Source: a virus (taxonomy: Duplodnaviria; Heunggongvirae; Uroviricota; Caudoviricetes). From it: 5,037 nt of DNA. The position numbers and the translations under genes were made by a program. Shown piece after piece: positions 1,605-4,572 of the stretch. The stretch lies in IMG/VR virus record IMGVR_UViG_2548877009_000019; one strand, given 5' to 3'. Under the pieces are notes generated by a model. It was not told the DNA's origin. It made no database searches and saw only the letters and a program-made list of their open reading frames with translations. The stretch's first letter is position 1. Every line of letters starts with the position of its first letter.

Positions 1605-1793
1605 GTGTTAAGCACTGATCGGTTTATACGTGAAAAAGAATGCGAAAAGCTAACAGGCCTTAGCCGCTCATGCCGCTACCGCCTGGAAAAGGCCGGACAA
1701 TTCCCATCACGTCGTAAACTTGGTGGGCGTTCTGTTGGCTGGTCTTTATCTGAGGTTTTGGCCTGGAAGGATAGCTGCAAGGCAGTTCACTAA
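1605..1793 (+). CDS. alpA: AlpA-family phage regulatory protein (small DNA-binding transcriptional regulator)
   Basis: 62 codons from a GTG start at 1605, preceded by AGGGGG (1594-1599) with a 5-nt spacer. The translation contains the AlpA-type pattern (TGLSRS..YRL...G.FP...KLG.RSVGW..SEV..W). Sits immediately after int in the same orientation, as is typical. Confidence 0.85.
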   Translation: MLSTDRFIREKECEKLTGLSRSCRYRLEKAGQFPSRRKLGGRSVGWSLSEVLAWKDSCKAVH

Positions 1794-2297: not shown

Positions 2298-2402
2298 TTA
2301 TTCTTTGGGTTCAATACCGCGTTGCTGTAATTCTTTTCGGATTATTCGTTTTATCCAAGCTGCTAAAGAGTCATCACCGTCTTGTTGTTGTGCTTTTTCC
2401 AT
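2298..2402 (-). pseudogene. Possible truncated/diverged paralog (34 codons) of the 2983-3162 small basic protein
   Basis: Hand translation of the minus strand gives MEKAQQQDGDDSLAAWIKRIIRKELQQRGIEPKE. Its 3' end and the following DNA are homologous to the 3' end of the 2983-3162 gene (...CCCAAAGAATAA versus ...ACCAAAGAATCAGAATAA). The N-terminal two-thirds is missing. Confidence 0.25.
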
Positions 2403-2470
2403 CTTTTCCCGTAAGTCAGGATCTAAACGGAACTGGAAAGGAGGATTACCACGCCTTTCATTTTTGTGTG

Positions 2471-2498
2471 TTGACATGTCAATTACACCCCATATAAT
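2471..2498 (+). promoter_or_regulatory. Near-consensus sigma70 promoter (TTGACA, 16-bp spacer, TATAAT), plus strand
   Basis: TTGACA at 2471-2476 and TATAAT at 2493-2498, read directly. A perfect 12-bp palindrome GTGTATATACAC lies just downstream at 2507-2518 (candidate operator). Predicted start site near 2505. Confidence 0.6.
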
Positions 2499-2530
2499 GT
2501 GTTTATGTGTATATACACATTACACACAAC

Positions 2531-2697: not shown

Positions 2698-2925
2698 TCA
2701 TCCTGGCGGGCGATTCTTACGGGACTTTAGCCGCCGTGGGCAGCTTGCTAAAAATGCCTCCAACGCGAATAGTCCAGGTTTCATTTCTATCGGTATTAGT
2801 TGGATATTCAGAGGATTAGCCAGTTCGGCTTCAAGGCGAGCACAGGTTTCTAACTGCCTTTGCCGAATGATTTCATCTTCTTGCGTCTGCGTGTCTTGTA
2901 TTGGTGATAGTGTGTTGTTGGTCAT
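2698..2925 (-). CDS. Hypothetical small protein (75 aa, starts MTN)
   Basis: Minus-strand ORF immediately downstream of the 2983-3162 gene, separated from it by the 45-bp repeat copy B. Followed on the minus strand by the 2531-2577 terminator. Paralogous start to the 2037-2240 ORF. Weak Shine-Dalgarno. Confidence 0.35.
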   Translation of the reverse strand: MTNNTLSPIQDTQTQEDEIIRQRQLETCARLEAELANPLNIQLIPIEMKPGLFALEAFLASCPRRLKSRKNRPPG

Positions 2926-2933
2926 GGTACTGC

Positions 2934-2979
2934 CCTGTAAAGCAATGCGCCGTAGTACCTCACGCCACGGCGCTGATGG
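2934..2979. repeat. 45-bp repeat, copy B, in the 57-bp spacer between the 2983-3162 and 2698-2925 minus-strand genes
   Basis: Matches copy A (2249-2293) with 2 mismatches. Forms GCGCCG-N15-CGGCGC on the minus strand. Confidence 0.8.
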
Positions 2980-2982
2980 TGA

Positions 2983-3162
2983 TTATTCTGATTCTTTGGT
3001 CTTGCGGCGCTGGCGGCGTTTGATTTCGCCGCGCATGGCTGCGTTTATAAACTGCCCCGTGCTTTCACCTTCTTCTTTCACGTTCTCCATGCCTTCAATA
3101 ATTTCATGGGCAATACGTGCAGTTACAGATTGTGATTTTGCATTCTTTGGACCCGTTGCCAT
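2983..3162 (-). CDS. Small basic protein (59 aa, MATGPKNAKSQSVTARIAHEIIEGMENVKEEGESTGQFINAAMRGEIKRRQRRKTKESE); candidate regulator
   Basis: Start placed at the internal ATG (plus 3160-3162) because it has a strong Shine-Dalgarno GAGGGG with 6-nt spacer; the longer track ORF to 3201 has none. Divergent from the plus-strand operon across an operator-like region. Lys/Arg-rich C-terminal tail. Regulatory role is inference. Confidence 0.55.
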   Translation of the reverse strand: MATGPKNAKSQSVTARIAHEIIEGMENVKEEGESTGQFINAAMRGEIKRRQRRKTKESE

Positions 3163-3182
3163 GTTTAACCCCTCATGTTTTT

Positions 3183-3264
3183 GGTGTAAGACAATATACA
3201 CGAAAAAAAAATATTTTGAAGGGTTGACGTGTAAGACACCGTTATTTTACATTGTGTCTTACAC
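3183..3264. promoter_or_regulatory. Divergent promoter/operator region with GTGT-N3-ACAC palindromic motifs
   Basis: GTGTAAGACA (3184-3193), GTGTAAGACAC (3229-3239) and its exact inverted copy GTGTCTTACAC (3254-3264). A -35-like TTGACG at 3224-3229 overlaps the second motif; the -10 is poor (TTACAT/TACATT). Confidence 0.5.
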
Positions 3265-3290
3265 CTTGTTAATGCAAGGTACAGAAAAGA

Positions 3291-3356
3291 CGAAACCCCG
3301 CAGTGCTGGAACACATACGGGCTTCTAACCAACAACGTAAACTAGGAGCCGTTATG
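3291..3356 (+). repeat. Leader module copy 2: hairpin AACCCCG / CGGGCTT (17-nt loop), CTAACCAA, Shine-Dalgarno AGGAG, ATG (3354)
   Basis: About 90% identical to copy 1 over roughly 40 bp. Outer stem positions differ from copy 1 in a way that keeps pairing (A-U pairs replacing G-C pairs) with one internal mismatch. Confidence 0.7.
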
Positions 3357-3537
3357 GTTGCTGTAAATCATATACCACACCTTGTACACACACAAACTGC
3401 CTTTGTGTGGCGTTTTCTGGCACTGAATATCGGAGAAAAAAACCAGTTGATCGCCAGTGTCGAAAATAGCTATGATTCCCGCGCACCTCATAAAACGGGT
3501 GCCGGGATTGGCGTCCTGGGCAAAACTGAAGCGCATA
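3354..3537 (+). other. P3-paralogous short ORF (MVAVNHIPHLVHTQTAFVWRF...) with no in-frame stop before the 3538-3560 terminator; leader peptide or decayed paralog
   Basis: Good Shine-Dalgarno (AGGAG). N-terminal roughly 30 codons are paralogous to the 3723-3911 ORF with several synonymous differences. The frame runs without a stop through the terminator to 3911, so the 202-aa track ORF is unlikely to be one real protein. Confidence 0.3.
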
Positions 3538-3560
3538 ACACGCGCCCCGCGTGTTTTTTT
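3538..3560 (+). terminator. Strong Rho-independent terminator (ACACGCG-CCC-CGCGTGT followed by a T-run)
   Basis: Perfect 7-bp GC-rich stem (3538-3544 and 3548-3554), 3-nt loop, T-tract through 3560. Plus-strand specific. Lies inside the 3303-3911 track ORF and upstream of the small-ORF operon. Confidence 0.75.
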
Positions 3561-3657
3561 GTGCCGCATAGTCACACCTTATCAATGGTGGGCTGTACGG
3601 GGGCGGAGCAATCCGCGCCGGTTTCTTCAGTGTCCGGTTACGCCAACCCTGTACAGT

Positions 3658-3725
3658 CCGCCACCAGCGAAATTGGCGTTTCCGGTGGCGGTTATCTTAA
3701 CCACACTGAGGAGGCTGCCAACATG
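3658..3725 (+). repeat. Leader module copy 3: hairpin CCGCCACC / GGTGGCGG (18-nt loop), TCTTAACCAC, Shine-Dalgarno GAGGAGG, ATG (3723)
   Basis: Perfect 8-bp stem at 3658-3665 and 3684-3691. Same architecture and spacing as copies 1 and 2 but with a completely different stem sequence. Confidence 0.6.
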
Positions 3726-3911
3726 GCTACTATCCCTACCCTTGTACATTCTCAAACCGCCTTTCTCTGGCGCTTTATCATCTTTGGCGCGTCAGAACAT
3801 CAAATCATCCACGTAACCGCCTGGACGGAACGCGAAGCGCGTAGCCGTTGCCCGTCAGGTTGTGTTGCTGTATTTGCCGCCCGTATTCGTCAGGAGGTGC
3901 GCCATGATTAA
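3723..3911 (+). CDS. Hypothetical small protein (62 aa, MATIPTLVHSQTAFLWRF...); first gene of the small-ORF operon
   Basis: Strong Shine-Dalgarno GAGGAGG (3708-3714) with 8-nt spacer. Stop overlaps the next start (ATGATTAA). Paralogous N-terminus to the 3354 ORF with synonymous third-position differences. Confidence 0.6.
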   Translation: MATIPTLVHSQTAFLWRFIIFGASEHQIIHVTAWTEREARSRCPSGCVAVFAARIRQEVRHD

Positions 3912-4116
3912 TCTGTCACTTACTGACCTTAACCGCATTCAGTTTCGTGAGAAATTCACAGGGCAGCTACTGGTCAATGTGGATAAAGGTCGCGTGGTGT
4001 GTAATTACCACTTACCAGATGAAGCAATTGTCGCCACAAGGGAATCATTACAGGAAATCACAAAACGTGCCGGAATGATTAACACGAATATTCAGGGGAT
4101 GCTTTATGCACAATAA
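3904..4116 (+). CDS. Hypothetical small protein (70 aa, MINLSLTDLNRIQFREKF...)
   Basis: ATG at 3904 preceded by GGAGG (3893-3897, 6-nt spacer). Translationally coupled to the genes on both sides. The track's upstream extension to 3862 has no ribosome-binding site. Confidence 0.65.
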   Translation: MINLSLTDLNRIQFREKFTGQLLVNVDKGRVVCNYHLPDEAIVATRESLQEITKRAGMINTNIQGMLYAQ

Positions 4117-4366
4117 AACCACACCGGACGCAGCCGCCGAAGCCATCAAAACGCTGATGCACGCGCTGATTGATATTTCTGTTATCGCGGACAGGGCACA
4201 TAAGCACGCCACCAGCGAAACAGAATATGCCGGGGCTTTCGTTCCTCACTCACTGGCTGTTATGCAATTTAGTGCTGATATGGCACTGAATGAGGCTAAA
4301 ACCATCCTGATTACTGATTGTGAAAATGGGGGGGGGTTATGCTTGATGATCGTTTTAATTCCCTGA
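4106..4366 (+). CDS. Hypothetical small protein (86 aa) whose C-terminus runs through a G9 tract
   Basis: ATG at 4106 preceded by AGGGGA (6-nt spacer); overlaps the upstream stop. The 3' end depends on the G9 tract at 4328-4336, so its true C-terminus is uncertain. Confidence 0.55.
   Translation: MHNKTTPDAAAEAIKTLMHALIDISVIADRAHKHATSETEYAGAFVPHSLAVMQFSADMALNEAKTILITDCENGGGLCLMIVLIP
4328..4336. repeat. Homopolymeric G9 tract at the junction of the 4106 and 4339 ORFs
   Basis: Nine consecutive G counted directly. One extra G would fuse the two ORFs in frame; one fewer would truncate the upstream ORF just before the downstream ATG. Confidence 0.9.
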
Positions 4367-4572
4367 AACAGGAATTTTCCGGCGTTCCTGATGATGCGGC
4401 TGATGCGCTTTCGTCAATGCCAGAACTTATTAGAGCGGCTTTTTTCTTACTTTCCACGAGAGAATATAAATCAACGGGGCTTGATGTACTGAATATCGCC
4501 GCCGATTATGCGGAATATGTGGCAGAGGCTCGTTACAGAAGAAAATTTCCTGAGGATGTAAACCATGCGTGA
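4339..4572 (+). CDS. Hypothetical small protein (77 aa, MLDDRFNSLKQEF...)
   Basis: ATG at 4339 immediately after the G-run, which can act as a Shine-Dalgarno. Stop overlaps the next start (ATGCGTGA). May be the C-terminal part of a fusion with the upstream ORF if the G tract is really G10. Confidence 0.55.
   Translation: MLDDRFNSLKQEFSGVPDDAADALSSMPELIRAAFFLLSTREYKSTGLDVLNIAADYAEYVAEARYRRKFPEDVNHA

Follow-up and report, generated by a model that had tools for sequence, protein, structure and literature searches.

In the immI region of phage P22, the ribbon-helix-helix (RHH) repressors Arc and Mnt act at the overlapping divergent promoters Pant and Pmnt. In the phage-inducible chromosomal islands (PICIs) of Gram-positive bacteria (SaPIs), the large master repressor Stl (Rpr) is encoded next to int and divergently from the replication/packaging operon, and its derepression by helper-phage proteins has been demonstrated. 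For the PICIs of Gram-negative bacteria, a description published in 2018 called the existence of a repressor unclear, and named as their activator AlpA, which is switched on by helper phages, needed for induction, and sufficient for it when over-expressed (PMC6092414). Here we analyse 5,037 nucleotides (hereafter the window) from the IMG/VR virus record IMGVR_UViG_2548877009_000019, which form the left end of an island of ~15 kb that has inserted into the Escherichia coli chromosome between roxA and phoQ. The host island is a capsid-forming PICI satellite (cf-PICI), of the Gram-negative PICI kind, and matches the layout of which EcCIEDL933 is the type example (bioRxiv 10.1101/2022.09.08.507074). 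Between a leftward gene for a 59-residue protein, here named RHH-II, and the rightward early operon of the island, the window carries three copies of a short repeat. We propose, with a probability of roughly 75%, that RHH-II is an Arc/CopG-type repressor of the PICI early genes acting at these AAGGTG-N5-CACCTT sites, a proposal supported by the fold of the protein, the architecture of the sites, their link to promoter elements, and the co-variation of protein and sites.

The locus resembles P22 immI in its small RHH repressors, in having operators between the -35 and -10 hexamers and over the start of the promoter of an ‘anti-immunity’ operon, in a divergent promoter that would be autoregulated, and in antisense RNA as a further layer of control. 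The two differ in that RHH-II has no detectable homology to Arc or Mnt (only RHH-I, the product of a second RHH gene in the window, matches the PHROG ‘Arc-like repressor’), in that three isolated sites stand here in place of the one 21-bp, tetramer-bound operator of P22, and in that this is a satellite and not a phage, with constant site arms around a hypervariable core and many specificity types. With Stl the locus shares the arrangement next to int of a repressor gene divergent from a replication/packaging operon, together with a proposed role in quiescence, but the 59-residue RHH protein is unrelated to Stl, and induction in the present islands is known only to need AlpA (PMC6092414). Among plasmid-encoded proteins, CopG (pMV158) has one 13-bp pseudo-palindrome and omega (pSM19035) contiguous 7-bp heptads, whereas the RHH-II sites are single and lie 22-45 bp apart.

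The elements on which the argument turns are the following, in coordinates of the window:
2983..3162, minus strand: RHH-II gene, the proposed repressor (59 aa; WP_000190551.1; YlcI/YnfO family).
3183..3194, minus strand: candidate operator O1, reading TTG-TCTTA-CACC, right after the P_L -10 and over the expected start of the RHH transcript.
3193..3220, minus strand: P_L, the leftward promoter of the RHH-II gene, from a promoter scan (-35 TTCAAA at 3220-3215, -10 TATATT at 3198-3193).
3224..3253, plus strand: P_R, the rightward early promoter, from the same scan (TTGACG at 3224-3229, 18-nt spacer, TACATT at 3248-3253).
3229..3240, plus strand: candidate operator O2, GTG-TAAGA-CACC, within the P_R spacer and with one base in common with the -35.
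3254..3267, plus strand: candidate operator O3, an inverted GTG-TCTTA-CACCTT right after the P_R -10 and over the expected start.

The original prediction had placed three copies of a motif in this divergent promoter region, and its coordinates were right: the 10-mer GTGTAAGACA is found exactly at 3184-3193 (plus strand), 3229-3238 (plus strand) and 3255-3264 (minus strand), three times within 81 bp and at no other place in 29 kb of genome, and a search of the window allowing up to two mismatches returns five matches, of which the remaining two lie elsewhere and have two mismatches each. The motif had been described as a GTGT-N3/4-ACAC palindrome. Such palindromes are indeed enriched, with 3 in the window (2507-2518, 3229-3239 and 3254-3264) against 0.17 expected, a count reached in 0 of 200 shuffles, but the copy at 3184-3194 reads GTGTAAGACAA, ending in A, and is not a full GTGT..ACAC because the final C is missing; the unit that is conserved is also longer than GTGT/ACAC, with palindromic arms (AAGGTG and CACCTT) around an asymmetric 5-bp core. 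The overlap of one copy with a -35 hexamer, which had likewise been claimed, is present and amounts to a single base, the first G of the site at 3229-3239 being the last of TTGACG. Nor does the motif occur at similar frequency elsewhere, as the 11-mer at up to one mismatch is restricted to the three sites in the 29-kb genomic locus L001. O2 and O3 are 25 bp apart in the window. A second leftward promoter-like match (3272-3244) was dropped, not being kept in L002, the sole other locus compared, by eye.

RHH-II scores 64.7 bits against the NCBIfam model NF041551 (YlcI/YnfO; cut-off 30) with residues 9-50 covered, in agreement with its RefSeq name, and its structure model, which is of the monomer, has a ribbon-helix-helix fold with strand-helix-helix topology over ~45 residues. 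In the strand, residues 12, 14 and 16 are polar or arginine and residues 13, 15 and 17 hydrophobic, with Arg16 invariant, and the turn between the helices is a nearly invariant G32-E-S-T35, of the G-x-S/T/N kind. By its modelled topology and by this strand and turn pattern, RHH-II is a predicted member of the ribbon-helix-helix (Arc/MetJ/CopG) superfamily. Its C-terminus is a basic helix, with no C-terminal toxin-binding extension. Pfam gives no family at E<=1, apart from noise, for either 59-residue protein of the window, and RHH-II is assigned to PHROG 949, of unknown function. Searches of 50,697 phage genomes, by BLASTN with the region and by TBLASTN with RHH-II, found nothing, and we therefore read the RHH-II subfamily as restricted to satellites. 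The K-12 namesake YlcI is RHH-like by sequence, but its gene belongs to the late region of DLP12, a different setting, and the DNA upstream of it showed no set of three sites like the one described here. In a literature search of incomplete coverage, no paper was found to connect PICIs with an RHH protein or to say what YlcI/YnfO proteins do.

Of 5426 complete E. coli genomes, 1714 contain DNA that matches the RHH-II module. A scan at one genome per species provided 48 Enterobacterales loci encoding RHH-II relatives at 47-85% identity, and a second, independent set of 80 IMG/VR loci brought the total to ~130 related loci. All scanned loci have the same 100-bp layout upstream of the RHH-II gene, with the three sites in fixed places. 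In all 49 loci O1 keeps its distance to the ATG, with 44-46 bp between O1 and O2. O1 directly follows the leftward -10, a TATAMT-type hexamer found in the same place in 45 of 49 loci; on the other strand, a TTGAnn hexamer, the rightward -35, abuts O2 in 47 of 49. O3, which may have either orientation, is spaced 22-26 or 35-36 bp from O2 and placed at or shortly after the start site of the rightward promoter. Nearly all loci have T, C or A at the first position of O1 in place of the G of GTG. The arms of the sites are constant across loci, and the 5-bp core varies between loci and agrees among the three sites within a locus. For the type found in the window, the O2 11-mer is invariant in ~25 distinct sequences while the three adjoining bases vary freely. 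The IMG/VR loci give the same picture and one further core type, except at locus L181, for which the script had placed the start wrongly.

The cores follow the protein. A locus's own O1 differs from its two upstream partners by a mean of 1.3 mismatches, as against 5.5 for an O1 taken from loci with a different core. Measured by adjusted mutual information (AMI) between protein column and site core, the most informative of 50 protein columns are 12 (AMI 0.63), 14 (0.58) and 5 (0.57), whereas more variable helix and loop columns reach just 0.1-0.2. Residues 12 and 14 are the predicted DNA-facing positions of the strand, and the pair they form goes with the same core in unrelated backgrounds (S or A with K, TGGCC; R with D, TCGGA; S with T, TCTTA). 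The strands and their cores are paired as follows:
Strand SQSVTARI: core TCTTA.
Strand SQMTTVRI: core AAATA or ACATA.
Strand SQLTTVRV: core AAACA.
Strands SQSLKSRV and SQALKARV: core TGGCC.
Strand SQK(L/V)QARA: core GACTC or GATTC.
Strands SKRFDVRV and SKRIDARV: core TCGGA.
Strand SKKLEARV: core TCAGC.
Strand SQQLNARF: core AATCG.
Strand SQQIVSRV: core CATGC.
Strand SLQVSVRL: core AACAC.
Strand STQIASRV: core CTAAC.

In these sequence comparisons, protein and sites have co-diversified into at least 15 matching specificity types. The exchange can be seen between otherwise similar islands. The window and EcCICFT073, the prototype Gram-negative PICI, have AlpA proteins that are 95% and integrases that are 94% identical, but RHH residues 1-45 are only 64% identical, and the core is TCTTA in the window and TGGCC in EcCICFT073. 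An alignment of four Pectobacterium/Samsonia loci has near-identical flanks, consisting of alpA, the C-terminal tail of the RHH protein and the start of the first early gene, and between them a replaced block that takes in the operators and the leader hairpin as well as the RHH coding sequence for approximately residues 1-45. Such a block between conserved flanks is, as far as the aligned sequences go, the signature of immunity-type cassette exchange. Genomes with two or three modules carry different specificity types in 6 of 7 cases (the multi-module loci being L015/L031, L016/L045, L021/L039, L035/L040, L024/L033/L046, L137/L168 and L205/L206), as expected if the types act as immunity groups; this is a tendency only, and a rule that co-resident modules always differ fails in IMG genome 2617271340, which has two modules of the same type. 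The immunity regions of lambdoid phages (CI/Cro), with their many heteroimmune types, offer a parallel in their tripartite operator (OR1-3) between divergent promoters, their co-diversifying specificity and their cassette between conserved flanks, but they differ in that their fold is helix-turn-helix and not RHH, in that no Cro-like antagonist is evident here, and in that specificity here seems to be set by two strand residues and a 5-bp core.

Several other accounts of the repeats have to be weighed against a repressor role for RHH-II. The sites might be bound by another protein of the island or host, with the RHH gene a mere neighbour: AlpA binds DNA and is an established activator of PICI genes, and two PHROGs families that match the Icd-like protein, encoded downstream of P_R, are labelled ‘transcriptional repressor’. 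As specificity partners, however, both were rejected, AlpA because an identical AlpA segment occurs with three cores (L021, L032/L048 and L035) and one core is found with both AlpA families, and the Icd-like protein because products 92-98% identical occur with three cores; the core follows the strand residues of the RHH protein, and a host factor is unable to explain 15 or more cores in one species group, so that we consider this account very unlikely. We give equally little credence to RHH-II as a type II antitoxin that partners the small downstream open reading frame (ORF; 2698-2925, with 2037-2240 as its counterpart in Unit I, described below), which would make the repeats autoregulatory only. 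Neither Pfam nor NCBIfam gives a toxin family for these downstream ORFs, and in PHROGs the 75-residue ORF has no match and the 67-residue ORF matches only a family of unknown function; in L021, L032, L035 and L048, alpA follows the RHH gene by ~110 bp, leaving little room for a partner ORF; the extension by which a toxin would be bound is missing from the 59-residue protein; and two of the three sites are on the divergent early promoter, with neither of those two on the RHH promoter.

That RHH-II binds the sites but serves to activate transcription, or has an architectural role or one in partition or at a replication origin, we regard as improbable, given that in every locus O2 is within the spacer and O3 coincides with the start or closely follows it, which are classic positions for repression, that the DNA upstream of the -35, the place of class I/II activators, contains none of the sites, and that the replication genes of the island are several kb downstream. 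Hardly credible at all is the explanation that no protein binds the repeats and that they reflect chance, or the structure of AT-rich DNA between divergent promoters, for which nothing speaks but their small size: no shuffle reached the observed count, and positions and within-locus identity are kept in ~130 loci while the adjoining bases vary. The original prediction had named the 59-residue protein as the ligand of a repressor/operator switch, and for the three sites at 3183-3264, as its predicted operators, that assignment is strongly supported by the RHH fold, the promoter-locked three-site layout, and a co-variation of core and strand that is absent for AlpA and Icd-like; a fourth site proposed for it, at 2507-2518, does not belong to this set.

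How the repressor reading of RHH-II would work can be set out in some detail, although binding, stoichiometry, the sign of regulation and the way in which induction overcomes repression are here what we infer. RHH-II would act most likely as a dimer on sites such as AAGGTGTCTTACACCTT, and would recognise three sites of 11-17 bp within the 100 bp that separate its own gene from the early operon. Because the sites sit at repression positions, RHH dimers are proposed to shut off the early operon: occupation of O2, in the P_R spacer, and of O3, at the start site, would block RNA polymerase, and the block at P_R would keep silent the genes for Icd-like, for replication and, further downstream, for capsid and packaging. 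O1, on the P_L start and with a systematically imperfect left arm, would provide negative autoregulation when more repressor is present. The constant arms may be read by the invariant Arg16 together with the N-terminal arm MATG.KN.KS, and the variable 5-bp core by strand residues 12 and 14; the specificity types would then behave like immunity types, with the cassette exchanged between otherwise near-identical islands. For induction we favour either AlpA-dependent transcription from upstream or a helper-encoded antirepressor, and AlpA read-through is attractive as the flip of the switch, if speculative, because alpA points to P_R across the convergent RHH gene. A bolder version, to which we lend only tentative credence and which we consider less likely than not, would make RHH-II the master repressor of Gram-negative PICIs and cf-PICIs, the counterpart of Stl, with a cassette that defines 15 or more immunity (incompatibility) groups through a two-residue/five-bp code and with AlpA read-through flipping the switch.

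The window in fact contains two tandem regulatory units, 2037-2697 (Unit I) and 2698-3360 (Unit II), in each of which a small ORF and an RHH gene are accompanied by an operator, a promoter and a leader and by the beginning of an icd-like gene, and among relatives there are islands with one unit only (L051) and with both units but without the RNA segment described below (L050). A conserved 75-nt repeat downstream of both RHH genes (2230-2304 and 2915-2989) is 84% identical between the units; its plus strand does not outdo shuffled sequences in folding (z -1.3 and -0.4) and its minus strand does so only marginally (z -0.7 and -2.0), and we make no claim of a terminator role for it. The features of Unit I that matter here are:
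2298..2477, minus strand: RHH-I gene, Arc-like, 59 aa (WP_000103621.1; PHROG 228 ‘Arc-like repressor’, E 1.5e-6; weak NF041551 match, E 5e-4).
2471..2498, plus strand: Unit I rightward promoter, TTGACA-16-TATAAT, 12/12 consensus matches, with its -35 in RHH-I codons 1-3.
2505..2520, no strand assigned: putative Unit I operator, a 16-bp perfect palindrome ATGTGTATATACACAT, with the Unit I rightward -10 on one side and the presumed RHH-I -10 on the other.

The palindrome GTGTATATACAC at 2507-2518, which occurs once in the 29-kb locus L001, had been put forward as a related site for the protein encoded at 2983-3162. That claim we do not uphold: the palindrome has N6 between GTG and CAC where the RHH-II sites have N5, its arms are others, and it lies ~30 nt upstream of the start of an RHH gene of its own. 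Across 80 related IMG/VR loci, the RHH-I family has an invariant strand, GNPPFQFRL, and the Unit I palindrome has essentially invariant arms (ATGTGT/ACACAT, with few single-base variants) around a free central 4 bp. On these sequences, 2505-2520 is best read as the single operator of RHH-I, and not as a fourth RHH-II site. The two protein families align in register by hhalign, but weakly (probability 13%, P 0.002), and RHH-I and RHH-II would on sequence be distant relatives at best. In loci related to Unit I the promoter is conserved as TTGACA-16-TGTAAT. A further palindrome, TTGACATGTCAA (2471-2482), puts a consensus -35 hexamer on both strands over the RHH-I start codon; as it spans that codon, the first codons of the divergent repressor gene already contain the beginning of the Unit I rightward promoter. 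Since the icd-like ORF of Unit I is truncated, its perfect-consensus promoter fires into the antisense of the Unit II RHH gene.

Downstream of P_R, the early operon begins with a structured leader and, in the window, two RNA genes that precede its first clear protein gene:
3296..3356, plus strand: conserved structured P_R leader, with a bipartite hairpin P1, a conserved UCUAACC, a small hairpin P2 whose loop contains the Shine-Dalgarno sequence, and the start codon.
3483-3559, plus strand: isrK-like RNA (Rfam isrK, 66 bits; gathering score 50).
3581-3668, plus strand: C4 antisense RNA (Rfam C4, 77.6 bits; gathering score 45).
3723..3911, plus strand: Icd-like gene (NCBIfam NF033153, 57 bits), the first in the P_R operon that clearly encodes a protein.

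Over 38 distinct loci, 92% of cells in the leader are paired, as against 28-42% in slid controls, and 11 of 15 pairs have a compensatory change; an Rfam scan found no family for 3296-3356. The single-stranded segment reads UCUAACC(A/G)C, and Unit I has a copy of the leader at about 2546-2611. Control of translation, or service as a target for RNA or AlpA, are possible roles. The isrK/C4 segment is missing from the otherwise near-identical island L050, no gathering-level hit to C4 or isrK was obtained in 12 other loci scanned, and the Rfam c4-a1b1 match in the window (21 bits) is below its gathering score; as the segment is missing elsewhere, we regard it as an optional second, RNA-based layer of control upstream of the icd-like gene. 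A promoter-like match, TTGATC-18-TATGAT, at 3447-3476 just upstream of isrK could allow RNA synthesis independent of RHH. The same region contains a pseudogene ORF annotated ‘ash family protein’ (3354-3722; Pfam Phage_ASH, E 2e-14), which coincides with the isrK-like and C4 RNAs; given the overlap, the ash family call may reflect conserved RNA genes. A close parallel to this arrangement is the immI operon of P1/P7 (C1-controlled promoter, c4 antisense RNA, icd, ant), whose order is shared by the isrK/a1b1-like RNA, the C4 RNA and the icd-like gene downstream of P_R. It differs in that P_R carries RHH sites here and not C1 operators, a search with a 17-bp P1 C1 operator consensus having given no match at <=3 mismatches, and in that the RNA segment is optional here; no ant gene, as in P1/P7, is evident in the island operon of the window.

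In the island as a whole, the integrase gene (1-1230) is followed by alpA, two small leftward gene pairs and a long rightward operon encoding Icd-like, small ORFs, DUF4222, a RepA helicase, SSB and PerC, and then the capsid and packaging set (major capsid protein, protease, portal, connectors, HNH, TerS and TerL). The activator gene is placed as follows:
1605..1793, plus strand: alpA (Pfam PF05930, E 5e-18), in the same direction as P_R, with the convergent RHH genes between.
The spacer between int and alpA (1231-1604) contains three direct repeats (1275-1295, 1295-1315 and 1525-1545) with the core ACGTGACACAATCA, and a perfect 12-nt inverted repeat (1417-1428/1434-1445) resembling a terminator. 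Of 12 related loci, 6 contain the Rfam int-alpA RNA (RF02996), which has no match in the window. Further along the operon, a run of nine G at 4328-4336 lies between the ORFs 4106-4366 and 4339-4572, which match the two halves of one PHROG (phrog_2512, positions 1-77 and 78-154), and related islands have one annotated 465-nt gene in their place. The split at the G-run could reflect a frameshift, phase variation or a homopolymer sequencing error.

The same module occurs in EcCICFT073, at the same chromosomal site and in the same int-alpA-RHH-P_R order (L214 6243-7053, equivalent to NC_004431.1 1380242-1381052). There the RHH strand is SQALKARV, and the sites read GTG-TGGCC-CAC twice and CTG-TCCCC-CAC once. 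The EcCICFT073 genes for the RHH protein, Icd-like and a 57-aa product have late-issued locus tags (C_RS30120, C_RS30125 and C_RS30800), which suggests that they were probably missing from the original annotation of the island and from the one used for the 2018 description. With its presence in the experimental prototype, the repressor hypothesis is open to test with existing strains.

The RHH-II switch would be a functionally unassigned example of a well-known kind of switch, and its interest lies in the gap that it addresses in satellite biology and in its matched specificities. With a natural set of 15 or more matched protein/operator pairs, it appears to be an unusually clean system in which to study how RHH proteins recognise DNA, and orthogonal mini-repressors might be drawn from it. 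Gram-negative PICIs and cf-PICIs are widespread and carry virulence and defence genes between bacteria, and the RHH module points to the repressor that Gram-negative PICIs were thought to lack.
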